Shown: positions 3,009 through 13,749 of the stretch, one piece after another | Layout: each line of letters opens with the position of its first letter | Position numbering within the stretch: position 1 is the stretch's first letter | Assembly (NCBI RefSeq): GCF_000007225.1 | Contig: NC_003364.1 | Location: 1,140,001 to 1,172,000, forward strand | DNA length: 32,000 nt | Reading direction: 5' to 3' | From: Pyrobaculum aerophilum str. IM2 | GTDB lineage: Archaea; Thermoproteota; Thermoprotei; Thermoproteales; Thermoproteaceae | Made by a program: the position numbers and the translations under genes | The notes under the pieces: model-generated | What the model was told of the DNA's origin: nothing | What the model saw: the letters and a program-made list of their open reading frames with translations, nothing else | The model's database searches: none

Positions 3009-3761
3009 TTACCTCTGGATCTCGCCCATTGCCTCAAGGGCTTTGTAAAAAGCCCTGTACGCCGCGTCTGGATCTATAAGGGCTTTTGGCGCGTCCTCCC
3101 TTTTGAGAAAGCCTATGAATTCATCTATAGGGGCTTTCTCTGCGTACTTCGCGGCGTTGGGATCTCTGAGGAGGGAAAAGGCGTAAGTAGCAAGGTACTT
3201 AAACGACGTCCCGCCGTATTTAAACACTTCATCTCCCAGCTCGCCATAAAGCCTAGCCAAGGCCAGCCCCACGGCGTAGCTCAAGGCTATAGTCCTCGAG
3301 ACGTAGAAGTCGTGCTTTTCCAACTCCCCCCACTCGGCCCTGGCCCCCAGCTCAGACCAGAAGCGAAAAGCCTCCTCGGCCCCCCGGCGCCCCGGCACCG
3401 CCATTATTAAAACCCTCTGGCCGCGGATAGAAGAGGCCCCGGGGCCGAAGAGGGGGTGGACAGTGGCGACGAGGGCGTCTTGGGGGAACAAGCCGTAGGT
3501 CTCCACCACGCCCTCTTTAAAAGTGGCGATGTCCATTACAAGCCTCCCCCGGGAAAGGGGGGCCAGCGCCTTAAGCACGCCGCTTGTCTCCCAAAACGGC
3601 ACGGCCACAATCAGCGCCTCGGCCCACAGGGCCAGCTCCTCTAAAGAGCCCACGTCGGATCTCGACTTATCTACGTCGAAAATCCTCACCTCGTGTAAAG
3701 AGGTCATCTCCCTCTTCAGCCATGATCCCATGGCCCCGCCGCCCACAATTCCCACTCTCAT
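3009..3761 (-). CDS. tyrA: Prephenate dehydrogenase
   Basis: There is a Rossmann motif at MRVGIVGGGAMGS and a VHPLFGP motif. I moved the start from the track's 3812 to the ATG at 3761, because a TATA-like gtttataaatt (3781-3791) lies about 25 nt upstream of it. Confidence 0.8.
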   Translation of the reverse strand: MRVGIVGGGAMGSWLKREMTSLHEVRIFDVDKSRSDVGSLEELALWAEALIVAVPFWETSGVLKALAPLSRGRLVMDIATFKEGVVETYGLFPQDALVATVHPLFGPGASSIRGQRVLIMAVPGRRGAEEAFRFWSELGARAEWGELEKHDFYVSRTIALSYAVGLALARLYGELGDEVFKYGGTSFKYLATYAFSLLRDPNAAKYAEKAPIDEFIGFLKREDAPKALIDPDAAYRAFYKALEAMGEIQR

Positions 3762-3858
3762 GCACGACCCACTAGGCCAATTTATAAACATGCCGCCAAG
3801 CCTGGCGCCCAACAGCGCCTGTCAAAGGCGACTGCAGAAATACCAGTCCCGCGGAAGG

Positions 3859-4392
3859 CTATTCCTTGGACTCGCCCATCTCTTCGGCCTTTTTCCTCCT
3901 CGCGAGGGCCACCCAAATGGAGGCGTATGCATGTAGCTTCCACGTCTCGGGAGTGCCGTATTCTATAATTAGCCTCCTAGCCACCTCTCTCAGCCACAGG
4001 GCCTCTTCATATGTCAACTCCTCTTTCTGGATGAGCTCCTTCAGCCTCTCCACCTCCTCTTTAGAAAGCGGGTTGGCCCCCACCAGCTTCACAACACGCC
4101 AAAGCTCCCCCCTCGCGAGCTCCGCCCTTTTCTTGTCAATAACGTCCTCAGCAGTTAAAAACTCCAGGAAAAACTCTTGATAGCTAGCAAAACCGTTTAA
4201 TAAACGGCTAAACCTCTCATCTACATAACGCCTCAGCTCCCCCTGCCCCTCTCTTATCTGTCTCAACTCCCTCTCAACTGTCTTAAACCGCTTGTCGATC
4301 TCCTTAAACTTGCCTCTCAGCCAGTACAACGCGCCTCCCAACATCCCCACGACAGTGAGGGAAAACCCCACGACGTAGTAAACAATATCCAC
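3859..4392 (-). CDS. Hypothetical membrane-anchored coiled-coil protein
   Basis: The 177-aa product has an N-terminal TM segment (VYYVVGFSLTVVGMLGGALYWL) followed by a charged helical region. It starts at GTG and has its own TATA-like element (4411-4419 on the plus strand). I recognise no family. Confidence 0.6.
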   Translation of the reverse strand: MDIVYYVVGFSLTVVGMLGGALYWLRGKFKEIDKRFKTVERELRQIREGQGELRRYVDERFSRLLNGFASYQEFFLEFLTAEDVIDKKRAELARGELWRVVKLVGANPLSKEEVERLKELIQKEELTYEEALWLREVARRLIIEYGTPETWKLHAYASIWVALARRKKAEEMGESKE

Positions 4393-4438
4393 GAAAAGCT
4401 CTCCCCGCGCACATAAATACTTAACGGGAAACGCCCCC

Positions 4439-4933
4439 TTAGCTTAGAAAAGTGGGGTTGAAAACTGCGACAACTCTCAGCGTCTTGCCAGAGGGCACGT
4501 TGGCGTCTACGAGGACCTCCACGCGGGCGGGGACGCAGGCGCCCGGGGGGAGGACCCACCTCCACTCAGACCGATTGCCCCACTTAACCCCAAAGAAAGA
4601 CCCGTTTACATACACCGCGAAGACCCTAACCCCCTCGGGCACCTCAGAGACGCGCGCCCAAACCGCCGCGGGCTTGTCCGCCAAGTTGCACAGAGGCATT
4701 TCAAAAACGACGATAGAGCCAGGCGCCGCCTCCACCCAATGCGAGCCGTTAACTCCCACTCCAAACACAGCCGCCCGCGCGCCGCCCTCCCCCCTTGTTG
4801 CAAACGCCGCGGGGCCGAAGAAAAGCCCCAGCATTGACACAATTCCCATAATTAACAGGGCAACGGCCCACCTCCTCTCTTCCGGCGAAACCTCTTCAAC
4901 TTTAACTCTCTGTTCGACCTTGGCCTCGGTCAT
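4439..4933 (-). CDS. Secreted or membrane-anchored protein A3 of operon A (C-terminal LPPGAC...VDANVP motif)
   Basis: The ATG at 4933 overlaps the upstream stop (4930-4932) as ATGA; the track's TTG at 4939 is less likely. The product has one TM segment (WAVALLIMGIVSMLGLFF). Its C-terminus aligns without gaps to the C-terminus of the 202-aa protein at 10721-11329. Confidence 0.65.
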   Translation of the reverse strand: MTEAKVEQRVKVEEVSPEERRWAVALLIMGIVSMLGLFFGPAAFATRGEGGARAAVFGVGVNGSHWVEAAPGSIVVFEMPLCNLADKPAAVWARVSEVPEGVRVFAVYVNGSFFGVKWGNRSEWRWVLPPGACVPARVEVLVDANVPSGKTLRVVAVFNPTFLS

Positions 4934-7167
4934 CCCCAAGCCTCTATGGAGTACGCTTTTAGTATTTGTCCTGCGTTTGTTTTATACCCGACGTATTGCG
5001 GCGTTGTGGAGTATGTACAGCCGTATCTGGCCAGTATAGCGCCGTTTTGGTCTCTTATTATCACGTCGCCAAATCCGTTTAACGGCCTGAGCTCTACGTA
5101 TTTCGCCGCTGGGAGCGTGCCGAGGGCGACTGCTGAAGGCCCGCAGAGGGCTGAGAAGGAAGAGCCCGTCTTGAATACGCCGAAAATAACATTAAACGAG
5201 GAGTCAAAAACTACAAACGCCCCAACGCCGGTGAAATTAGAGAGGTAAGTGAGGGCGTTGGGGACGAGGCCTCTGTAAGCAACGGCGCCGTTAGCTAAAA
5301 ACAACGCGTAATTAGTTTGCCACGCGTAAACGCCTGTGGAGTACCAGCCGCCTGGGAGGGGACAGCTGTAGCTCGTAATGGAGACGGGGCCCCACAACAC
5401 CTGAATATCGCCGTTGATGTTACCTGAGTCGTAGTAGCTGGCGTCTGTTACGACAAGCGCTATTTTCAACACAGCGCCAGTGATAGAGCCGAGGTTTATG
5501 TTGAAGCTAAGAGTCTGCTTGTAGGAAGTTATAGCGCCTAGCGCAGTAACGAGGTATCCAGCCGGCGCGTTGCACGTGCCCGCCGAGGACACAGTGCACA
5601 CAACTTGGCTAGTGAACGGGGAGACGATTACGCCGTTGTACTGAGCCGTGTCGTAATAGTAGTAGATATATTCCACGTCGCCTACGCCGTCAAAATTACT
5701 ATCTACCAGTAGGTCGATGTACACGACGTTATTAATGCCATCTCCGACCCCTCTGTAGTACTGCGCGGTCACGGAAATCGCAGCGTTAGTGGCGTTGAAG
5801 ACGTAGCTGAAAATGCCGGCGGCGATGCCGTAATCGGCGCTGGGGTTGTTGTTATTCCCGTAGGCGTCCACCTGCGTCACTAAGTAATTCCCCGGCGCCA
5901 CGAACACTGAGGTGTACTGTTGCCCCCTAGTGACTGTCTGTAGATCGCTGGGAGCGGAACAGGGGGTTTGGATAGACAAATTCTTCCAGTCGACCCAGAA
6001 GTCGCCAGCGGGGGAACCTGCGACGAATCCCGAGGCATCGACCACGGCGAGGGCAACGCTCACGATATTCCCGCTCAGCGTACTGGGCAGCACTACTGTG
6101 ATTTTAAAAGCGGAACCGCTCGAGACGCTCTGGACCTTAATCAGCCCATATACCTGTGGCGGGTTTGTTGTCGGGTTACCGTTGGCGTCTATACTGGCTA
6201 CCTGAGTTCCTGGGTTCACCAGAACGGAGTAAATGGTGCCATTACCATCGGCGGTGTCCCATACATAGGCGATGATCTCTATGTCCGCTGTGCCGTTGCC
6301 GTTAGTGTCAATGCCAATTGACACATAAGCCACGTTGTTCTGAGTATCCCGCGAATTTCTGTAATAAGTTCCTTCCACAGACACCACGGTCCCCCCGGCT
6401 GAGATGGAGCCCCACCGCGATGTCACATTATAGATAATAGAAGATATACCATATCCTATTGGTCTTGCGTCTATTTGCGTTCTTATGGAAGTACCGGTAT
6501 ATTGAACGGGGTTTGTCAATGTGGCGGTAAAATACACGGTGTACTCCGTGATGTAGGCCGGCTTAGATGTATATGCCAGCGGGTCGTAGTATGTGGTGGA
6601 GCCGCTACATGTAAAGGTCTTTTGATATGTATAGCCGGGACAACTGAAGCTCTGTTGGTACAGCCTCTGCATTGGCTCTGCTGTGAAGTTCACCCACTGC
6701 CACGCCGTTATGCCTCCCTGTTGGAAAATTGCCCTGGCCAGCACGGAGTATCTGCCGGTTGTCGTCGTTGTCCATACAAGCTGGGCGGTTGTGGGGACGA
6801 AGGGCCCCGCGTCTTGCTGGTCAGTTATCTGCGGCTGGCCGCCTAGCGATATGGCGTAGGTGCCGCCGGGGTTGCCGGCGCGGGAGACGGCCACAAGCCT
6901 CGCGCTCCATCCGGGGTCGCGGGCTCTGAATCTGCCCACTACGTACTGCTCCGGCCACCCCGGCATGAACTTCATGTAGTAGTACGTAATGTTGACGTCT
7001 GATAACTGGTACCACCCCCTGGCCAGCGGGTATAGAGAGGCGTTGAAGTCTTTCATGACGGGGGGGAGCGTGGCGTTTACCCTCCAGTACGTGACGTTGA
7101 AGAAGGAAAACAGGGCGTATACGGCGGCTACTCCCAAGGCGATTAGCAGAAGCGCCAGCCTCTTCAT
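4930..7167 (-). CDS. Large secreted, sequon-rich beta-type protein A2 of operon A (745 aa) with an internal tandem domain duplication
   Basis: The product has an N-terminal hydrophobic segment followed by NVTYWRVNATLPPVMK. There are many N-x-S/T sequons and the composition is rich in T, S, G, Y, V and N. Two ~165-aa repeats are present (aa ~236-404 and ~445-604). It overlaps the upstream gene as ATGA. Confidence 0.75.
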   Translation of the reverse strand: MKRLALLLIALGVAAVYALFSFFNVTYWRVNATLPPVMKDFNASLYPLARGWYQLSDVNITYYYMKFMPGWPEQYVVGRFRARDPGWSARLVAVSRAGNPGGTYAISLGGQPQITDQQDAGPFVPTTAQLVWTTTTTGRYSVLARAIFQQGGITAWQWVNFTAEPMQRLYQQSFSCPGYTYQKTFTCSGSTTYYDPLAYTSKPAYITEYTVYFTATLTNPVQYTGTSIRTQIDARPIGYGISSIIYNVTSRWGSISAGGTVVSVEGTYYRNSRDTQNNVAYVSIGIDTNGNGTADIEIIAYVWDTADGNGTIYSVLVNPGTQVASIDANGNPTTNPPQVYGLIKVQSVSSGSAFKITVVLPSTLSGNIVSVALAVVDASGFVAGSPAGDFWVDWKNLSIQTPCSAPSDLQTVTRGQQYTSVFVAPGNYLVTQVDAYGNNNNPSADYGIAAGIFSYVFNATNAAISVTAQYYRGVGDGINNVVYIDLLVDSNFDGVGDVEYIYYYYDTAQYNGVIVSPFTSQVVCTVSSAGTCNAPAGYLVTALGAITSYKQTLSFNINLGSITGAVLKIALVVTDASYYDSGNINGDIQVLWGPVSITSYSCPLPGGWYSTGVYAWQTNYALFLANGAVAYRGLVPNALTYLSNFTGVGAFVVFDSSFNVIFGVFKTGSSFSALCGPSAVALGTLPAAKYVELRPLNGFGDVIIRDQNGAILARYGCTYSTTPQYVGYKTNAGQILKAYSIEAWG

Positions 7168-7835
7168 CCCGCCGCGGCGAGGAAGTCCAGCTTTTCCCTG
7201 TCCTCAGGCGGGAGGGCGCTGGGATCGACGGAGGACAGTATTACCTCTGCCGCCTTTTTCGGGTCAATGAAATAATAGGTAAAGGCTCCAATTCTAATGG
7301 ACTTCAGCTTCCCCTCCCTCTCCAAGACGTATATGTGCCACTGCACCGCGCCCCAGCTCTTGCCAGTGGCCTTAGCTATTTGCGACATAGTGGCGGCGCC
7401 CATTTGTTCCACCACGCGGAGTATTTCCCTCCTGGCGGGGTCGTCCGCAGCGGCCCTCTTTATCCTCGCCACAATGGGGAGTACGGGCGCGGCGAGGAGC
7501 TCCCTCCTGTTACTGGCGAGGTGGCTCAGTCCGGCCGCCGCCGCCACGCCGGTCGCGACGACTATAAGGGGCGACACAGTGGGCGGAGGGGCAGGCGGGG
7601 GAGGCGGGGCGCGGTATTCAACGGCTATGTAGCCGCTGAAAGCCGCTGGGCTTAACCCGGGGTTTGCGCACATAATCGTCACAGGCTTGTCTATGTATAA
7701 GACTCCAGTGGCGTTGCAAGCGCCCGCGGGCAAGACAGCGTGTACTGTGGCAGTAGTATTAGGCGGCACGTACACTGGGAACAGCCATGTGGCCAGAGGC
7801 GCCAGTATTATAAATACAGTGATGTTCACAAGCAT
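7164..7835 (-). CDS. Membrane-tethered winged-helix (ArsR/TrmB-like) transcription regulator A1. Layout: signal/TM, small extracellular domain, poly-Pro linker, TM, cytoplasmic wHTH
   Basis: N-terminal TM segment: VFIILAPLATWLFPV. The extracytoplasmic part carries LPAGAC. The linker is APPPPPAPPP. The second TM segment (LIVVATGVAAAAGL) is followed by NRRE. The wHTH region reads RREILRVVEQMGAATMSQIAKATGKSWGAVQWHIYVLEREGKL. Confidence 0.75.
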   Translation of the reverse strand: MLVNITVFIILAPLATWLFPVYVPPNTTATVHAVLPAGACNATGVLYIDKPVTIMCANPGLSPAAFSGYIAVEYRAPPPPPAPPPTVSPLIVVATGVAAAAGLSHLASNRRELLAAPVLPIVARIKRAAADDPARREILRVVEQMGAATMSQIAKATGKSWGAVQWHIYVLEREGKLKSIRIGAFTYYFIDPKKAAEVILSSVDPSALPPEDREKLDFLAAAG

Positions 7836-7850
7836 TTAAATGCTTCGATA

Positions 7851-7868
7851 TAAATATTCTACGTTGTG
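7851..7868 (-). promoter_or_regulatory. Promoter-proximal element upstream of operon A (plus-strand taaatattctacgttgtg): TATA/BRE plus an ACGT-centred site
   Basis: It matches 11352-11369 upstream of operon B at 17 of 18 positions. It lies 16-33 nt upstream of the A1 start codon (7835). Confidence 0.55.
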
Positions 7869-7897
7869 GTAATTATTACTACGGATCAATTCCGCGT

Positions 7898-8260
7898 TTA
7901 ACCGCCTCGGCGGGCCAGTTTTAACAAATCCCAGTACAAGCCCTTGTCCAGTATCTCTGTCACCAGCCCTAAGTCTAATGCGCCGTAGCCGTGCACTACG
8001 ACGTTTCTAAATCCTATTGTCCTCCTCAACAGCGCGGCCTCCAGTACTCCAAGTTGCGCAAGAGCCCTCGGTATGTCTGAATACTTAGCAGGCGGCTCCG
8101 TCCCCGCCTCCGCTGCCAGCCTCGACGCGGCGTCTATTAGCGCTTGTATTGCCACTTACATTAAACGCAACGCCGCGTTTAACAAGACGTAGTCTTCCAC
8201 AATTTCCCTGGCGCCGTGCCGCTTGACTAAGCCGTCGAGAGTCTCCACGTTTCTCTTCAC
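7898..8260 (-). pseudogene. hepT: HepT (DUF86/HEPN) toxin gene interrupted by an in-frame TAA
   Basis: The downstream part (7898-8155) carries the HEPN motif R-x4-H-x-Y (FRNVVVHGY). The same frame continues upstream as KRNVETLDGLVKRHGAREIVEDYVLLNAALRLM, then TAA (8156-8158), then VAIQALIDAAS. A probable GTG start at 8260 lies 8 nt after the MNT stop. The total is about 120 codons, the normal HepT size. Confidence 0.65.
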
Positions 8261-8268
8261 TAAGGAAA

Positions 8269-8673
8269 TCAGCGAGTCGATTTTTCCGATAGCGTCTTCA
8301 CAAACCTCTCCTGCACGCCTGTCTTCTTGAGGAATATTTGGAAGTCGGCCCACAGGTAAAACGCCTTTACTAACTTGTCTATGTACGCCCCCTTGTCTTT
8401 GGCATATATAAGCCTCCCCGCCAAGGTTCTGTATTTCAACTCGTAGGGCAAGTCGTCGGAAATTACGAGCACGTCCACTCGGTTCACGCCCAAGGCGTCT
8501 GAGGCGTCTACTGAAAAGTCTGCGATAAAAGCCAGCGGGTCGCAATTATCCGCTATCTTAACCGCCACGTCGACGTCGCTGAGTGGCCCCGCCCTGCCCG
8601 TCGCAACTGAGCCGAAAAGTACTGCGAAGATGACGCAGTCGCCGTATTTCTCCTCTATTAAGCCTCGACGCAA
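8269..8673 (-). CDS. mntA: MNT-type nucleotidyltransferase antitoxin (minimal nucleotidyltransferase)
   Basis: It has the motif FGSVATGRAGPLSDVDVAV (GS-x9/10-DxD). It sits directly upstream of the HepT-like gene. The start is TTG at 8673, 12 nt after the stop of the preceding membrane-protein gene. Confidence 0.85.
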   Translation of the reverse strand: MRRGLIEEKYGDCVIFAVLFGSVATGRAGPLSDVDVAVKIADNCDPLAFIADFSVDASDALGVNRVDVLVISDDLPYELKYRTLAGRLIYAKDKGAYIDKLVKAFYLWADFQIFLKKTGVQERFVKTLSEKSTR

Positions 8674-8685
8674 CCGCCTCGCTCA

Positions 8686-9048
8686 TTATATAAAGAAGGG
8701 GTCTCCCAGCCCTAGCGCCCTGGCCACAACGGCCAGGATTATTATATAAATCCACGCCGCCGCGGCGAATAGATACATCGTCCACCTCCTGCGGAACATG
8801 CCCCAGTAGGTATATGCAATGGACGTGGCGAGGAGGGCGAGGGCCAGGAGGTAGGTGAACCTCGCGTAGAACAGCCCCCACTGCTGGGCCAGCAGAGTGA
8901 GGACAAACCCGGCTATGAAAGAGACGATGGCTCCCGTCCACACGGTGAAAGTCACCGGGCGTGTGTAGTAGAAAAGGTATATAAGGGGCGCCAGGGCGGC
9001 GATGACGCCCCCCGCGGCGGCTATTAAGAAGGTCTCGGCGCCGTTCAT
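8686..9048 (-). CDS. Small polytopic membrane protein B4 (about 4 TM segments)
   Basis: I moved the start to the ATG at 9048 (MNGAETFLIAAAGG...). This sits 1 nt after the stop of the upstream gene (9050-9052). The product is almost entirely hydrophobic helices. Confidence 0.6.
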   Translation of the reverse strand: MNGAETFLIAAAGGVIAALAPLIYLFYYTRPVTFTVWTGAIVSFIAGFVLTLLAQQWGLFYARFTYLLALALLATSIAYTYWGMFRRRWTMYLFAAAAWIYIIILAVVARALGLGDPFFI

Positions 9049-9049
9049 G

Positions 9050-9451
9050 TTAAAACAGCCAGAGGCTGTAGTTGTTCGTCGCCAGCGCGGCGACGTAGAG
9101 GGCGAATAGGTATACATACGGCGCGCATGATATCAGCGCAAGCTCTAAATCCCGCTTTGACGGCCTCAGCGCTATGTTGAGCTGTATGAGTTGCGCGGCG
9201 ACTAGGAGCGCGAGGCCGATTACCGCCGACAGCCTCCACGCCGCGACTCCGCCGTATGCCACTGTAATCCACACCGCATATATATTGGCCGCCCCCGCCA
9301 GGACTAAAAAGGGCACGATGACATCTCGGTGTTGAAATAAAAGCTGGGGAGCCAGGCCGTAATACTTCGCAGTAAGCCTCTCTGCGTATACTCTGCCGAA
9401 GGCCACGGCCATGCCCACCGCAATGCCGACGAGAAGCGCAACGTAGTTCAT
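9050..9451 (-). CDS. Small polytopic membrane protein B3 (about 4 TM segments)
   Basis: The 133-aa product is hydrophobic throughout. It has its own TATA-like element (9473-9483 on the plus strand) about 27 nt upstream of the ATG at 9451. Confidence 0.65.
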   Translation of the reverse strand: MNYVALLVGIAVGMAVAFGRVYAERLTAKYYGLAPQLLFQHRDVIVPFLVLAGAANIYAVWITVAYGGVAAWRLSAVIGLALLVAAQLIQLNIALRPSKRDLELALISCAPYVYLFALYVAALATNNYSLWLF

Positions 9452-9482
9452 GTGATTGCGTATGCACCGGGGTTAAAATTTT

Positions 9483-10721
9483 TTACGTTTTCCAAGGCCT
9501 TAGAGACTCTTGAACCACTGAAATCACGGCGGGCCAGCCGCCCCAAGTCCCCGTTGGGTCGGCAACGACGTATATTGGCTCTGTCCAGCCGGAGGGCACG
9601 CCGCATGGCGGATTGCAAGTATAATAGGGGGAGGATCTGCTGAAAACCCAGTATTTAGACATGCCGTCTGTGTACAGCCAAGCAACGCCTTGTCTAAAAG
9701 GCCCTGTGGCGTTGAGAGGCTTGTACAGCGATACAAGCGTTGTGAGATAAGTAGAGACGCCGAATTGATACCTTATAACCGCGCCCCACATGCCAACAGG
9801 AGTGCTGTAAGTGTAGAAATGTACGCGGTAGGACTTGGCCGTAGCTACTGTGTAGTTAACCTCGCGGAGAGCCGTTTTGAAAACCCTCACCCCCTCAGCC
9901 CTAGGCGAGTCGAAGAAGGGCCCGGCGTAGCCCGGCAACACAACCCCCATTTCTCCCCGCAGAGTCGGGGCGGGAGGGACGGACACGTTGACCGCAGGGG
10001 GACACGGGGCATCGTAGACATACAGCTTTTCAACGCCTTGCAGTTTTACAAAAGCCCCGTATCTCTCTACCCCCTTGTCCGAGGGCGCGTACACTGGGGG
10101 AAGGACGTTAGGCACAACCTCTGCGTATTTTAAGGTCTCTGTTATGAGCACTGACTTGTTAAACACAAAGACGCAACCCGAGATGGGCAGTTTCCCCACG
10201 TCTCTCTCCCAGATGTAAAAAGCTCCGTCTCTGCCCACTTGCACGAACTGCCGTCCAGAGCCGTTGAGCGTAATCACCACGCGCTGGGCGGAGCCCGGGT
10301 ACCAGTCGACAAGCCTTACTTTTAACCTAACCGCGTCCCGCCACCCAGAGGGGTGGGTGAAGTTCACCAAGCACTCTCCCTCAAAGCCCGGCGGGATGGT
10401 TAAGTCGACGGGGTAGGCCCCGGGGGCTTCGCCCACAGAGGACACCCCCACTGCCCCGCAAGTAGACGACGCGAGAACTGTAGTCGGGTAGAACAACCTA
10501 ACCTCCACCGCCTTTGGGTAGAGCCAAGGCCCGTAGGGCGAGCTGTAGAGATACAGCGTCTTGTCTTCCGCAGCCACGTAGGAGGGCAACTGGCCCAGGG
10601 CCACTTCGGCTAAGGGACCGCTACGGAAGGCGTAATCGCCCCCCGGGGAGGTTAGGGCTATTATGAAGACGAGGGTGGGGAGGAATAAAAGGAGTGTTCT
10701 TATTACCGCCTCTTTGCGCAT
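9483..10721 (-). CDS. Secreted protein B2 of operon B (412 aa)
   Basis: It has an N-terminal signal/anchor (TLLLFLPTLVFIIALT), several N-x-S/T sequons, and a looser IPPGFEGEC motif. It is coupled to the upstream gene by a TAATG overlap at 10721. Confidence 0.7.
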   Translation of the reverse strand: MRKEAVIRTLLLFLPTLVFIIALTSPGGDYAFRSGPLAEVALGQLPSYVAAEDKTLYLYSSPYGPWLYPKAVEVRLFYPTTVLASSTCGAVGVSSVGEAPGAYPVDLTIPPGFEGECLVNFTHPSGWRDAVRLKVRLVDWYPGSAQRVVITLNGSGRQFVQVGRDGAFYIWERDVGKLPISGCVFVFNKSVLITETLKYAEVVPNVLPPVYAPSDKGVERYGAFVKLQGVEKLYVYDAPCPPAVNVSVPPAPTLRGEMGVVLPGYAGPFFDSPRAEGVRVFKTALREVNYTVATAKSYRVHFYTYSTPVGMWGAVIRYQFGVSTYLTTLVSLYKPLNATGPFRQGVAWLYTDGMSKYWVFSRSSPYYTCNPPCGVPSGWTEPIYVVADPTGTWGGWPAVISVVQESLRPWKT

Positions 10722-11329
10722 TACTGCGGCACTTTCTCTATGTTGACTTGGAAGGCGGCGAGGGTCTCGTAATACGGCGCGTTTGCGTCAATTATCATGT
10801 CAACGCCCAACACCGCACAAGTGCCGGAGGGTAGAGTCACGTAGTCAGTTGTCGTGTCCACGGGCTGTCCATCTTTAATTATAACAATAGGATCGGCGGG
10901 AGGCGGCGTGGGCTCTACAAACTTAATGGCAAGGTATCTTATCAGTTTGGCGCCGGAGCCCGTGGTCCCGTTTTGATAAGTTACAGTGAAGTCTTGTAGC
11001 AGTAAGACGTCTGAAATTCTTATCTTAATGTCTGTATTGTAGTTATTACAGACGCGTAAGGCGTTGGTAATGTTGAGAATATCGCCGGGGACGCCGGTTA
11101 CGTAAACTCTCGTTATGTTAAGACCCGTGTTCGGGTCGTAGTACCAATCTGCCTTTACAAACGTCCCGTTCATAACATTAGTATCTTTGCCGACGTATTT
11201 AATCACCGGCGGCTCAGTGGTGTTTACATACCAATATGTCACGTTTAATACAGACACAGCCGCAAACAGCGCCACTGCTCCAAGCAATACGACTATTAGC
11301 CCCAAAGCCCTGTACTCCCTCCTTGTCAT
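10721..11329 (-). CDS. Secreted protein B1 of operon B (202 aa), carrying both the NVTYW-VN-T-PPV-K and the LPSGTC...IDANAP motifs
   Basis: N-terminus: RALGLIVVLLGAVALFAAVSVLNVTYWYVNTTEPPVIK, compared with A2's NVTYWRVNATLPPVMK. C-terminus: LPSGTCAVLGVDMIIDANAP, compared with A3's LPPGACVPARVEVLVDANVP. Confidence 0.7.
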   Translation of the reverse strand: MTRREYRALGLIVVLLGAVALFAAVSVLNVTYWYVNTTEPPVIKYVGKDTNVMNGTFVKADWYYDPNTGLNITRVYVTGVPGDILNITNALRVCNNYNTDIKIRISDVLLLQDFTVTYQNGTTGSGAKLIRYLAIKFVEPTPPPADPIVIIKDGQPVDTTTDYVTLPSGTCAVLGVDMIIDANAPYYETLAAFQVNIEKVPQ

Positions 11330-11351
11330 GTATCGAAGAAATGTACCTAGT

Positions 11352-11369
11352 TAAATATTCAACGTTGTG
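11352..11369 (-). promoter_or_regulatory. Promoter-proximal element upstream of operon B (plus-strand taaatattcaacgttgtg), containing the palindrome CAACGTTG
   Basis: It matches 7851-7868 at 17 of 18 positions. The TATA part is centred about 27 nt upstream of the B1 ATG (11329). The palindrome (11360-11367) lies between the divergent B1 and GTPase promoters. Confidence 0.55.
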
Positions 11370-11413
11370 CCGTTCAGACATACACATCTTTATATATGGG
11401 AGGGGGTTTTTCC

Positions 11414-11905
11414 GTGGCTAAGTCTTGGGCTGTGGTGTTTTTGGGCGTCGGCGGCGTGGGCAAGACCACTTATATATATAAGTTGCTGGGCATTTCTAAG
11501 ACGCCTCAGTTGACGCGAAGGCCGCGCACTTATTTCACCGCCACTGAGCTTGGGAGGCTGTTTTTAGTGGATATCCCGGGGCAGAGGGCTACGGAGGTGG
11601 CCAAGGCTTATTACGAGGCGGCTAGGAGCTACGGGCTGAGGCTGGACCTCGCCGTTTATATGTACAGCGTGGTGGAGCCGGAGACGTTAGACGCCCTTTG
11701 GCAGATACACGAGTGGGCTGTGAGAATTCCCGTGGCGCGGAGGATTTTAGTGGGCAATAAAGTCGACTTGGCGGAGGAGCTTGGGGTGATAGTGGAGGGC
11801 GAGGACGCGGCTAGGGGCCTCGGCATCTCCGCCGTTTACTACACGTCTGCGCTAAAAGACGAGCCCACACGCCTTTTAACGATTCTCTTTGACAACTTGA
11901 CATAA
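11414..11905 (+). CDS. Ras-superfamily small GTPase
   Basis: G1 is GVGGVGKT, G3 is DIPGQ, G4 is NKVD and G5 is TSA. I prefer the GTG at 11414 (read as M-AKSWAVVFLGVGGVGKT, Ras-like spacing) because the TATA-like tttatata (11389-11396) overlaps the track's ATG at 11396. Confidence 0.8.
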   Translation: MAKSWAVVFLGVGGVGKTTYIYKLLGISKTPQLTRRPRTYFTATELGRLFLVDIPGQRATEVAKAYYEAARSYGLRLDLAVYMYSVVEPETLDALWQIHEWAVRIPVARRILVGNKVDLAEELGVIVEGEDAARGLGISAVYYTSALKDEPTRLLTILFDNLT

Positions 11906-11968
11906 AATATATATTCCCTCGGCGTAAATATGTAAAAGGTGACTGTCTCTAGTTGCGGGGGCGTTGCG

Positions 11969-12874
11969 TTACGCCACTAGCTGTACTGCTTTGCACATCT
12001 GTACCACTAGTTCAAATATCTGTTTGAAATCCCCCGCCCTGCGCAGTACCTGCGCCTCGCGTACGTCGTCGTATATGGGCAGTCCTGCGTCTTTTTTGAG
12101 GCGCCCCATGTCTCTACACACCTCCAGCCTCTTCTTGAGTAAGTACATGAGGCCTCCGTCTACCCAGTCCAAGGCCTCTCTCAGCGCCGGGAGCCCGCCC
12201 CCGCTCGGCGTAATGCCCAGGGCGAGCAGGGCGGCGTAGTAGGCGTCTGCAGTCAACTGGCCTGGGGCCGTGGCCTCGCCCAGCGAGACGTACATAATGG
12301 GGCTTCCCAGCGCCGCGGCGGCCACTCTTGTGTACGCCCCTGCGGGCCCCATGGCGAAGGCGACAGTGGGCTTCTCCACCGCCCCTATTAACGACAGCAC
12401 TCTGAGCCCGTCCCCCGGCTCTTTGGCGTAGGTGACGATTTTCACCAAGTCGCCGACCGCCGCCGCTTTTTTAGCCCACTGGCTCAACACGTCGAGAGGA
12501 GGCGTCTTCTCGAAGTCGTGTCTGCTGGCTATTAACTGCGCCTTTCCCTTAATTTTCGCCACTTCGCCTATAATGGGCGACTCGGCCTCTACGTCGATGT
12601 AGTGCGGGTTTAGCTCCAGGAGCTTTCTGTACAAGGCCTCTCTCCCCTCCTCGTCTCCCCTCCACTGGCCCCCCTCCTCACGCCTCCTCACTGTAAAAAT
12701 TACCACGCGTCTCGCCACTGCGTGTTCTAAAAGGGGCCGCACCTCGGCGAGATCCGCCTCTAAATAGTCGAGCCTCAGCTCTAGACAGGTCACGGGCGCC
12801 TCCAGCGCCTTTTCTATATCGCGCGGCTTTCTGACGGGGACGACGCCGCAGATTAATACCCCATATTGTAACAT
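11969..12874 (-). CDS. aroD: Bifunctional type I 3-dehydroquinate dehydratase fused to an AroQ-type chorismate mutase
   Basis: The N-terminal ~225 aa look like AroD type I (LELRLDYL, IASRHDFEKTP, AFAMGPAGAYTRV). The C-terminal ~75 aa look like AroQ chorismate mutase (LPALREALDWVDGGLMYLLKKRLEVCRDMGRLKKDAGLPIYDDVREAQVLRR). Confidence 0.8.
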   Translation of the reverse strand: MLQYGVLICGVVPVRKPRDIEKALEAPVTCLELRLDYLEADLAEVRPLLEHAVARRVVIFTVRRREEGGQWRGDEEGREALYRKLLELNPHYIDVEAESPIIGEVAKIKGKAQLIASRHDFEKTPPLDVLSQWAKKAAAVGDLVKIVTYAKEPGDGLRVLSLIGAVEKPTVAFAMGPAGAYTRVAAAALGSPIMYVSLGEATAPGQLTADAYYAALLALGITPSGGGLPALREALDWVDGGLMYLLKKRLEVCRDMGRLKKDAGLPIYDDVREAQVLRRAGDFKQIFELVVQMCKAVQLVA

Positions 12875-12885
12875 AATTCTCTATT

Positions 12886-13749
12886 TTAAAAGAGAACTCC
12901 CCGTCTCCAACAGAGGGCGCACTCGGCGCACTGAGGCCTTCCCGCGAACTCCTCGGGGTCTAGGACTATCCTCTGGCTCAAGGCCCCCAGCGCCTCCCTC
13001 AGCCATTTCCACAGAGCGGTCTTTAGGCGGGGGGCGTGTTGGACGTGGTTTAGAAATACGAGGATTCTGGCGTCTGTGTTCTCCAGTATATATTTAATCG
13101 CGGGGAGGTCCCTCTCCTCCTGCCCCGGGGTATATACGTACGTAATGAGCCCTCTCTTAATCTCCCGCCACGTCTCCACCGCCTTTATGTAATTGTGGGG
13201 ATCTGCGCTGAGGTGTATAATTAAGTTCTGAGGCGCCTCGCCCCGCACTACGTGAAACGACTTGGTGTATGTGTAAAATACGCGGTCTGGGTGTTGCCGG
13301 GCTATCTCTGCCCATTTTTCAAAATACTCCTCGTCGTAGAAATCCCCGCTTACGTGAAGCCTAATTACTCTGTGCGGCAGGCGGGCTAGGTATTTGCCCA
13401 CCACTTGGGGGAAGTCCTCTCTGAGGGAGAGAAGGTATGAAGCGGCCTCTCTGACGTAAGCCCGCCAGTTGGTGATTTCGTACACAGCGTAGCACCACTT
13501 GTAGCAGAACTCCGTGGCCCCCGGGCAGGTGAGCACTGGCGGAAGGGAGAAGAAGGGGATTTCCCCCATTTTCCTATTTCCTATAGTGAAGGGGCCTAGC
13601 CACCACCTCCCCACGCCTACTAGCGCCGGGTCAAAGGGCGTTCTTGCCAGGCAATTCTCGTCGCCGCAGTTGGCCCAGGCCTCCGCCAGGTATTTCGCCA
13701 ATTCGCTGCGAATAAGCCTCCCCGCCTCTTCAACGCGCCAGAGCCTCAT
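12886..13749 (-). CDS. Cysteine-cluster protein of unknown function, possibly related to the phage GP88-type family
   Basis: The 287-aa product has SLPPVLTCPGATEFCYKWCYA (C-x6-C-x3-C) and a C-terminal CAECALC. The resemblance to GP88-type proteins is from memory only. The coding quality is good. Confidence 0.6.
   Translation of the reverse strand: MRLWRVEEAGRLIRSELAKYLAEAWANCGDENCLARTPFDPALVGVGRWWLGPFTIGNRKMGEIPFFSLPPVLTCPGATEFCYKWCYAVYEITNWRAYVREAASYLLSLREDFPQVVGKYLARLPHRVIRLHVSGDFYDEEYFEKWAEIARQHPDRVFYTYTKSFHVVRGEAPQNLIIHLSADPHNYIKAVETWREIKRGLITYVYTPGQEERDLPAIKYILENTDARILVFLNHVQHAPRLKTALWKWLREALGALSQRIVLDPEEFAGRPQCAECALCWRRGVLF

Follow-up and report, generated by a model that had tools for sequence, protein, structure and literature searches.

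Positions 4439 to 11905 of the window, by which we mean the whole stretch of 32,000 nucleotides analysed here (Pyrobaculum aerophilum str. IM2, contig NC_003364.1, positions 1,140,001 to 1,172,000), hold with a probability of about 90% the archaeal bundling pilus (ABP) gene cluster of a Pyrobaculum species. ABP are donor-strand surface filaments tying cells together in biofilms, and an eight-gene cluster for them was described in Pyrobaculum calidifontis (Wang et al. 2022, PMC9245690). The system is already known, and what is new here is this locus, as an added member with a divergent pilin subtype. The roles of two of its proteins, called A2 and A3 below, are those that we infer. An original prediction, made from the letters of the window, had described two paralogous operons of an uncharacterised surface system, unit A with the genes A1, A2 and A3 and unit B with B1, B2 and two small polytopic membrane proteins. 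All of its open reading frames (ORFs) are present on the minus strand (Table 1). The gene overlaps are borne out as well, with ATGA at the A1/A2 and A2/A3 junctions and TAATG at the B1/B2 junction. The label "uncharacterised" does not hold for a cluster published in 2022 (PMC9245690).

All eight P. calidifontis ABP genes have an orthologue in the window, with 31-77% identity and E-values from 3e-20 to 0, and the sizes and features of the window genes agree gene by gene with the published operon (PMC9245690). In this operon Pcal_0910 is AbpA with 204 amino acids (aa), Pcal_0909 is AbpB, which has 410 aa and is TapA-like, and Pcal_0908 and Pcal_0907 are four-helix membrane proteins (PMC9245690). 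Pcal_0906 is a GTPase, which according to Wang et al. is not conserved in other species, Pcal_0905 is a regulator of the winged helix-turn-helix (wHTH) kind, Pcal_0904 has a single N-terminal membrane segment and a large beta-rich ectodomain, and Pcal_0903 is the eighth gene; the six accessory genes carry only generic predictions in that paper (PMC9245690). Our Pfam and NCBIfam scans of ten proteins gave no family for A2, A3, B1, B2 or the two small membrane proteins.

The strongest single match is that of B1. When B1 was searched with phmmer against all PDB chains, the sole match was 7ueg_A, annotated as 'Pilin' (E 4.2e-21, residues 3-196 against 4-197). 7UEG is the cryo-electron microscopy structure of AbpA, the ABP subunit of P. 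calidifontis (PMC9245690). By its sequence B1 is an orthologue or paralogue of this bundling-pilus pilin, of a subtype only about 31% identical to the solved AbpA. No Pfam family came up for B1 in hmmscan at E <= 1, and so there was no match to Peptidase_M73 (Pfam: PF12389) of the TasA/camelysin superfamily, a link which for P. calidifontis AbpA was seen only by HHpred, with 97% probability (PMC9245690).

The signal peptide of P. calidifontis AbpA is cut between AMA and TL, giving a mature start at T25, and the N-terminal strand inserts into the next subunit and bears the glycosylated N37; N78 and N93 are also glycosylated (PMC9245690). At the sequence level, the three Asn residues glycosylated in 7UEG align with the B1 sequons N36, N71 and N86. 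Similarly, A23 of B1, kept in 16 of 17 family members, corresponds in the alignment to the -1 Ala of the AbpA signal-peptidase site. What the original prediction called motif 1 follows this position, and its residues T31, Y32, W33, N36, T38 and P40 are invariant in the 17 AbpA-family sequences; C94, C171, D181 and P185 are invariant in the same alignment. Because motif 1 of B1 is aligned to the mature AbpA N-terminus that was seen inserted by cryo-electron microscopy, including the glycosylated N37, we read it from the alignment as the N-terminal donor strand of the mature pilin. The idea of a donor strand as in archaeal bundling pili was thus right for B1, and it had already been published for AbpA (7UEG, E 4e-21; PMC9245690). 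Motif 1 occurs just twice in the six-frame translation of the window, in B1 and A2, and no second abpA or further motif-1 protein was found in this translation.

The genome-contig search gave five close Pyrobaculum loci, and the P. calidifontis locus (L006) was reached through its A2 homologue. Every related locus that is long enough (L001, L002, L005 and L006) has the same gene order, which is abpA in one or two copies, abpB, the two membrane protein genes, then the GTPase, a MntA/HepT pair or nothing, and finally A1, A2 and A3. The halves A and B are contiguous in P. calidifontis and in Pyrobaculum sp. WP30. Compared with P. calidifontis, the order is kept in the window except that a MntA/HepT type VII toxin-antitoxin pair is inserted between the fourth and fifth cluster genes, where the GTPase stands in P. 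calidifontis, and that the GTPase gene is relocated upstream on the opposite strand. MntA/HepT is found at the same position in the metagenome-assembled locus L003 and is absent there in P. calidifontis and WP30. The flanks also match those of the P. calidifontis cluster, with a type I dehydroquinase/chorismate mutase, a GP88-like protein, an aminotransferase, a GHMP kinase and a GH31 enzyme.

Because the same order is contiguous in related loci and a toxin-antitoxin insertion is present here, the "two operons" are two halves of one known cluster. The insertion and the relocation of the GTPase together make one cluster look like two operons; the inserted pair, two more minus-strand genes between the units (7898-8673), had been absent from the first account. 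It is very improbable that the units are paralogous operons of an uncharacterised surface filament or matrix system with private motifs. Such a reading can point to the tight coupling of the genes inside each unit, to the motifs common to B1 and A2 and to B1 and A3, and to the lack of a Pfam or NCBIfam family for A2, A3, B1 and B2. However, B1 is AbpA, and each gene pairs as an orthologue, in unchanged order, with one of the eight genes published for ABP. The two units adjoin each other in other genomes and only MntA/HepT parts them here, and B2 has no counterpart or paralogue in unit A. The reading is already refuted by orthology and synteny, and synteny rules out a direct paralogy of the two units; the resemblance to B1 is confined to the first ~75-100 residues of A2 and, possibly, the ectodomain of A3.

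Two tandem abpA paralogues, one of the calidifontis type and one of the B1 type and roughly one third identical to each other, are found in L001, L002 (9157-9750 and 9920-10501) and L005. The P. calidifontis cluster has only the calidifontis-type abpA, and the window has only the B1 type.

Besides the pilin itself, A2 is the protein in which the donor-strand motif recurs. That the N-termini of B1 and A2 share motif 1 is confirmed by BLASTP (E 2e-9 over 76 residues) and by the profile-profile comparison of the AbpA and A2 families with hhalign (probability 97.3%, E 2e-11, 75 columns, B1 9-89 against A2 4-77), and the latter match spans the signal peptide, the donor strand and the following strands. 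With a hidden Markov model (HMM) of the A2 family as the query, 7ueg_A was the sole match among all PDB sequences (E 0.0042, chain residues 11-124). N-terminal conservation in the 53 A2 orthologues is highest beyond the hydrophobic segment: A18, N24, P36 and K39 are each conserved in 52, N31 in 51, L34 in 50 and A32 in 49, with T or S at position 33 in 51. In the alignments, A18 of A2 falls on the -1 Ala at the signal-peptidase site of AbpA, and N31 on the glycosylated N37. The N-terminal segment of the predicted mature A2 therefore has the resemblance to the pilin donor strand that a TapA-like initiator should have. In the AlphaFold2 model of A2, with a predicted local distance difference test (pLDDT) score of 92.5 and a predicted template modelling score (pTM) of 0.82, residues 24-32 have a pLDDT <50 and are not packed against the ectodomain, and the remainder has a pLDDT >90.

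The homology of the A2 donor strand to AbpA (Pcal_0904 family) is not found in the searchable literature, and neither are the likeness of the A3 fold to AbpA and the two-helix membrane layout of A1. The name Pcal_0904 occurs there only in the 2022 paper, the main text of which is silent on the donor-strand likeness of Pcal_0904 and on the pilin-like fold of Pcal_0903 (PMC9245690). A public P. aerophilum annotation of the A2 orthologue (P0096) starts at the equivalent of M38 and thereby loses the signal peptide and the donor strand. Start-site miscalls such as this one could hide motif 1 in databases.

The ectodomain of A2 is of a different kind. Searched as a whole chain with Foldseek, the A2 model has its top matches in tandem CBM22 domains, CBM32 and the domains of Vip3 toxins that resemble carbohydrate-binding modules (CBM). 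The A2 sequence contains a tandem duplication in which residues ~228-400 match residues ~428-598 (31% identity, E 3e-19). On the model, the ectodomain is probably a multi-domain, CBM-like jelly-roll that binds carbohydrate. A P. calidifontis paralogue, P0168 (1174 aa; L008 8001-11525, CP000561.1), carries the A2 ectodomain in full, beginning at the 'PP' of motif 1 (30% identity, E 3e-63). The N-terminus of P0168 is a different one, MWRIRGLSTVASFAIFLTAFAVIVL / RIRGLSTVASFAIFL..., which resembles an archaeal class III (type IV pilin) signal, and the gene lies beside two T2SSF genes and one T2SSE gene (PilC/PilB-like; L008 4011-7035). Because the A2 ectodomain is also found on the type-IV-pilin-like P0168 beside PilB/PilC-like genes, the same adhesin module may be used on two unrelated kinds of filament. 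By analogy, the A2 ectodomain would be a filament-borne adhesin module attached to the ABP filament by a short AbpA-type strand.

A3 resembles the pilin in its other part. Motif 2, which the original prediction had placed near the C-termini of B1 and A3, is real between these two proteins (BLASTP E 9e-5 over 25 residues) and weaker than motif 1. The AlphaFold2 model of A3 has a helix at 19-41, a low-confidence Gly-rich linker and a beta-sandwich of ~105 residues with pLDDT >90. Its top Foldseek match among 350,542 PDB chains is 7ueg_A (E 1.2e-3, probability 1.0), followed by the chaperone-usher pilins FimG, PapA and FimA. C84 and C135 are invariant in the A3 family, and C135, E141 and D145 are invariant in 11 members; when the AbpA and A3 families are aligned by hhalign, the two conserved Cys of the one fall on those of the other (CN ... 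PGxC). In the loci compared, the ABP cluster always ends with A3. According to Wang et al., Pcal_0903 is one of the proteins with four predicted membrane helices (PMC9245690), whereas our hydropathy scan shows a single long hydrophobic stretch each for Pcal_0903 (20-69) and A3 (22-48). As a hypothesis from the model, A3 could be a pilin-like acceptor and membrane anchor, for which TafF of the haloarchaeal Tat-fimbriae is a precedent.

A1 is by its sequence a membrane-bound, two-helix winged-helix regulator, as opposed to a structural protein that is secreted. An outside domain of ~55 residues bearing two conserved Cys follows the hydrophobic segment at 1-25; a poly-Pro linker then leads to the second hydrophobic segment (85-108), and a cytoplasmic-type wHTH domain is C-terminal (residues 129-198; HTH_24 E 1e-6, HTH_5 E 3e-5, ArsR/SmtB-type E 3e-7). 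The view that all of the products are secreted glycoproteins is therefore not supported, as A1 is a membrane-bound wHTH regulator and two of the genes encode four-helix membrane proteins. Further copies of motif 2 had been read in A1 and B2. The LPAGAC of A1 is not a significant match (E 0.3) and is lost in the orthologues, which have LPPVCN (Pcal_0905) and LPHQLCN (WP30). The looser IPPGFEGEC of B2 has no significant pairwise match either, and the AbpB family profile gives E 0.39 against AbpA, with no donor-strand likeness in the AbpB N-terminus, and a non-significant E 0.053 against the A3 family.

Wang et al. gave Pcal_0909 the name AbpB and proposed it as a possible strand-donating initiator (PMC9245690). 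In the window abpB, the gene of this TapA-like secreted protein, lies directly downstream of abpA. In the WP30 locus (L002 10431-11737) abpB is split into two ORFs of 283 aa and 150 aa, which suggests a frameshift, a pseudogene or a sequencing error. The products of 9050-9451 and 8686-9117 have four hydrophobic segments each in a hydropathy scan. They are the most conserved genes of the cluster, with 72-86% identity across loci, and have no Pfam, NCBIfam or PDB sequence match. From these sequence features, both are candidates for a so far unrecognised assembly platform. The ORF at 8686-9117 aligns to Pcal_0907 from residue 24, and the true start of this gene is probably the ATG at 9048.

We tentatively propose that ABP is a three-part, chaperone-free donor-strand pilus, with A2 as a tip or initiator whose glycosylated strand lies in the first pilin, A3 as a membrane anchor without a donor strand and A1 as a sensor. 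AbpA would be exported by Sec with a cleavable signal peptide, and the new N-terminus would be motif 1, N-glycosylated, as was shown in the orthologue and is conserved here in sequence. As in the orthologue, this donor beta-strand would insert into the jelly-roll groove of the neighbouring AbpA to give a very stable filament, and filaments of different cells would bundle antiparallel and hold the biofilm together. A2 would be processed at the same Ala as AbpA, and the groove of a terminal AbpA subunit would be filled by the AbpA-type N-terminal strand of A2, in the manner of TapA with TasA. A2 would then sit at one end of the filament, as tip or initiator, and display its CBM-like domains. At the opposite end A3, tethered by one membrane helix, would offer a pilin-like beta-sandwich without a donor strand, receive the terminal donor strand and so serve as the anchor or terminator of the filament on the membrane side, a part that TafF has been proposed to play. 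A1, embedded in the membrane, may sense filament assembly from outside and couple an outside signal to the transcription of the cluster. By homology, AbpB, the two four-helix proteins, the GTPase, A1, A2 and A3 are the conserved accessory genes of the ABP cluster.

Several points weigh against this arrangement. Wang et al. put forward AbpB, and not Pcal_0904, as the possible initiator and gave Pcal_0904 no such role (PMC9245690). The donor motif of A2 is less AbpA-like in P. calidifontis (FNASQWAANATLAP) than in the window. With only 31% identity to the solved AbpA, and with both subtypes in tandem in some genomes, B1 may be a minor pilin and not the major one. Moreover, the roles of A2 and A3 are drawn from sequence and monomer models. 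It is possible, if on the unlikely side, that A2 stays outside the filament as an adhesin or matrix glycoprotein, free or attached to the envelope, and that its likeness to AbpA comes from a common signal for export and processing or from gene conversion among neighbours. Much of the matched region is indeed signal peptide, P. calidifontis shows less of the likeness than this genome, where it is strongest, a pattern to be expected of recent gene conversion, and the ectodomain also exists without the strand in the paralogue. However, the conservation of the A2 N-terminus peaks after the predicted cleavage site (N24, N31, A32, L34, P36 and K39, in 49-52 of 53), unlike that of signal peptides, the match runs into the mature domain up to AbpA residue 124, and the segment is unpacked in an otherwise very confident model.

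For A3 the template modelling score (TM) of the Foldseek match to AbpA is only 0.40. The hhalign comparison of the AbpA and A3 families, over 84 ectodomain columns, gives E 0.0015 with a probability of only 17%, and the A3-family profile has no match among the PDB sequences. Homologues of A3 number 4 proteins in a word-indexed search and 24 in an exhaustive one. Its phmmer matches include repeated domains of giant proteins; of five that were scanned, P0178 has DUF11, CARDB and NEW3 and the others have PKD, SH3 or other immunoglobulin (Ig)-like repeats. Because A3 also matches the repeats of such giant DUF11/CARDB-type proteins, motif 2 may be a generic beta-sandwich feature. All of this, together with a Foldseek list full of assorted beta-sandwiches at similar E-values, would fit A3 being a generic membrane-tethered Ig-like (CARDB/DUF11-type) protein, for example a chaperone, sensor or envelope protein, with motif 2 as a common beta-sandwich signature. 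We consider this a serious alternative that falls somewhat short of an even chance. AbpA is nevertheless still the top structural match among all the chains searched, both conserved Cys of each family fall in register, A3 always closes the ABP cluster, and the control profiles gave only a membrane-helix match (A3 against the A2 family, E 0.0044) or nothing (against AbpB).

Compared with the P. calidifontis ABP cluster, the locus in the window has a pilin of the same length with the same donor-strand motif, Cys pair and three glycosylation sequons and, by alignment, the same signal-peptide register, the same position of abpB immediately downstream and the same aromatic-amino-acid gene neighbourhood. 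It differs in the divergent pilin subtype (31% identity) and in having MntA/HepT in place of the GTPase, with the GTPase upstream on the other strand. In the TasA/TapA/SipW system of Bacillus subtilis, N-terminal donor strands are likewise inserted between jelly-roll subunits, and TapA donates its own N-terminus to TasA to start the fibre (PMC10151520), a role which is the one that we infer for A2. In contrast to this system, the ABP cluster is without a dedicated signal peptidase and the fold of A2 is unrelated to TapA; the protein called TapA-like on structural grounds is AbpB and not A2.

The Tat-fimbriae (Tafi) have TafA/E pilins, a TafC tip, a TafF anchor and the two-helix putative regulator TafB (PMC11821415, PMC12337348). 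As would be the case in the window, one cluster there encodes a donor-strand pilin, a multi-domain tip protein, a proposed anchor with a pilin-like domain tethered by a membrane helix and a two-helix membrane regulator, and the layout of A1 is comparable to that of TafB. However, Tafi pilins use the Tat pathway and the dedicated peptidase TafD, and their fold is reported to be distinct from those of ABP and thread pilins. The membrane region of TafF is C-terminal according to the H. hispanica paper, whereas that of A3 is N-terminal. The roles of TafC, TafE and TafF are themselves only modelled, and we liken these proteins to the window genes by layout and not by sequence. Chaperone-usher pili (Fim/Pap) are similar in the donor-strand exchange of incomplete beta-sandwich subunits and in their specialised tip and terminator, and FimG, PapA and FimA are near the A3 model. 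ABP, which belongs to an archaeal host, differs in lacking a chaperone, an usher and an outer membrane, and no PapD- or PapC-type family was found in any cluster protein by the Pfam and NCBIfam scans. Furthermore, the adhesin A2 would carry a donor strand, whereas FimH has a groove and no strand, so that the polarity would be reversed. Sulfolobus threads and the cannulae (CanA) of Pyrodictium are likewise filaments that archaeal hyperthermophiles form without a chaperone, with donor strands and glycosylation holding them together, but they are built from other subunit families and are absent from the sequence and structure matches obtained for the window proteins.

The MntA/HepT pair is no part of the pilus system. 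The MntA antitoxin looks intact, whereas the HepT toxin is probably a pseudogene or inactive, since its reading frame carries an in-frame TAA; otherwise only an 85-aa C-terminal fragment is likely to be made. The AT-rich stretch aatatttatatcgaagcatttaa (7836-7885, minus strand) lies immediately upstream of the A1 start codon. Judged by its letters it could serve as an archaeal TATA element, in which case A1, A2 and A3 would have a promoter of their own downstream of the inserted toxin-antitoxin pair. The GTPase gene is divergent from abpA over a 66-bp AT-rich spacer, likewise in the metagenome-assembled locus L004. That it is kept beside the cluster despite the rearrangement hints at a functional link. 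A comparison of window positions 3009-12874 with WP30 L002 8318-17456 showed the whole ABP cluster to be inverted relative to two common flanking genes, a prephenate-dehydrogenase-like gene and the dehydroquinase/chorismate mutase gene. The 287-aa protein at 12886-13749 (minus strand) matches Pfam GP88 ('Gene product 88', E 3e-38) and lies amid aromatic-amino-acid biosynthesis genes. A GP88-type gene has the same position in WP30, and P. calidifontis has a 273-aa ORF without a Pfam match there.

Table 1. Genes and motifs of the ABP cluster and its insertion, with positions in the window. Identities and E-values against P. calidifontis proteins are from BLASTP.
Feature	Position	Strand	Remarks
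Small Ras-like GTPase	11396..11905	+	Pcal_0906: 55% identity, E 4e-57; Pfam MMR_HSR1 and Ras
B1 / abpA	10721..11329	-	202 aa; Pcal_0910: 31% identity, E 4e-23
Motif 1 in AbpA	11198..11248	-	residues 28-44, LNVTYWYVNTTEPPVIK; aligns to P. calidifontis AbpA T25-K44
Motif 2 in AbpA	10775..10834	-	residues 166-185, LPSGTCAVLGVDMIIDANAP; C-terminal beta-strand region with conserved C171; aligns to A3 130-149
B2 / abpB	9483..10721	-	412 aa; Pcal_0909: 47% identity, E 4e-114, full length
Small polytopic membrane protein	9050..9451	-	133 aa; Pcal_0908: 76% identity, E 2e-51
Small polytopic membrane protein	8686..9117	-	143 aa; Pcal_0907: 77% identity, E 9e-49
MntA/HepT type VII toxin-antitoxin pair	7898..8673	-	Pfam Polbeta/NTP_transf_2 and HepT-like; NCBIfam MntA_antitoxin E 5e-15, HepT_toxin E 2e-15
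MntA nucleotidyltransferase antitoxin	8269-8673	-	
HepT RNase toxin	7898-~8290	-	TAA at 8156-8158 (...AALRLM, stop, VAIQALID...); remaining ORF 7898-8155
A1	7164..7835	-	223 aa; Pcal_0905: 60% identity, E 2e-81
A2	4930..7167	-	745 aa; Pcal_0904: 54% identity, E 0
Motif 1 in A2	7051..7101	-	residues 23-39, FNVTYWRVNATLPPVMK; predicted donor strand
A3	4439..4939	-	166 aa from TTG, 164 aa from ATG at 4933; Pcal_0903: 40% identity, E 3e-20
Motif 2 in A3	4493..4552	-	residues 130-149 of the 166-aa ORF, LPPGACVPARVEVLVDANVP; BLASTP against B1 E 9e-5

The main value of this analysis is negative, in that the supposed uncharacterised filament is the known ABP. What is left is a testable model of ABP assembly with candidates for the tip and the anchor. 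If the model is true, the initiator role would move from AbpB to A2 and the filament would gain a defined polarity. The reuse of the A2 ectodomain suggests a modular exchange of adhesins between unrelated archaeal filaments. Should the tip and anchor roles hold, they would bring ABP in line with the logic of TasA/TapA, of Tafi and of the chaperone-usher pili.

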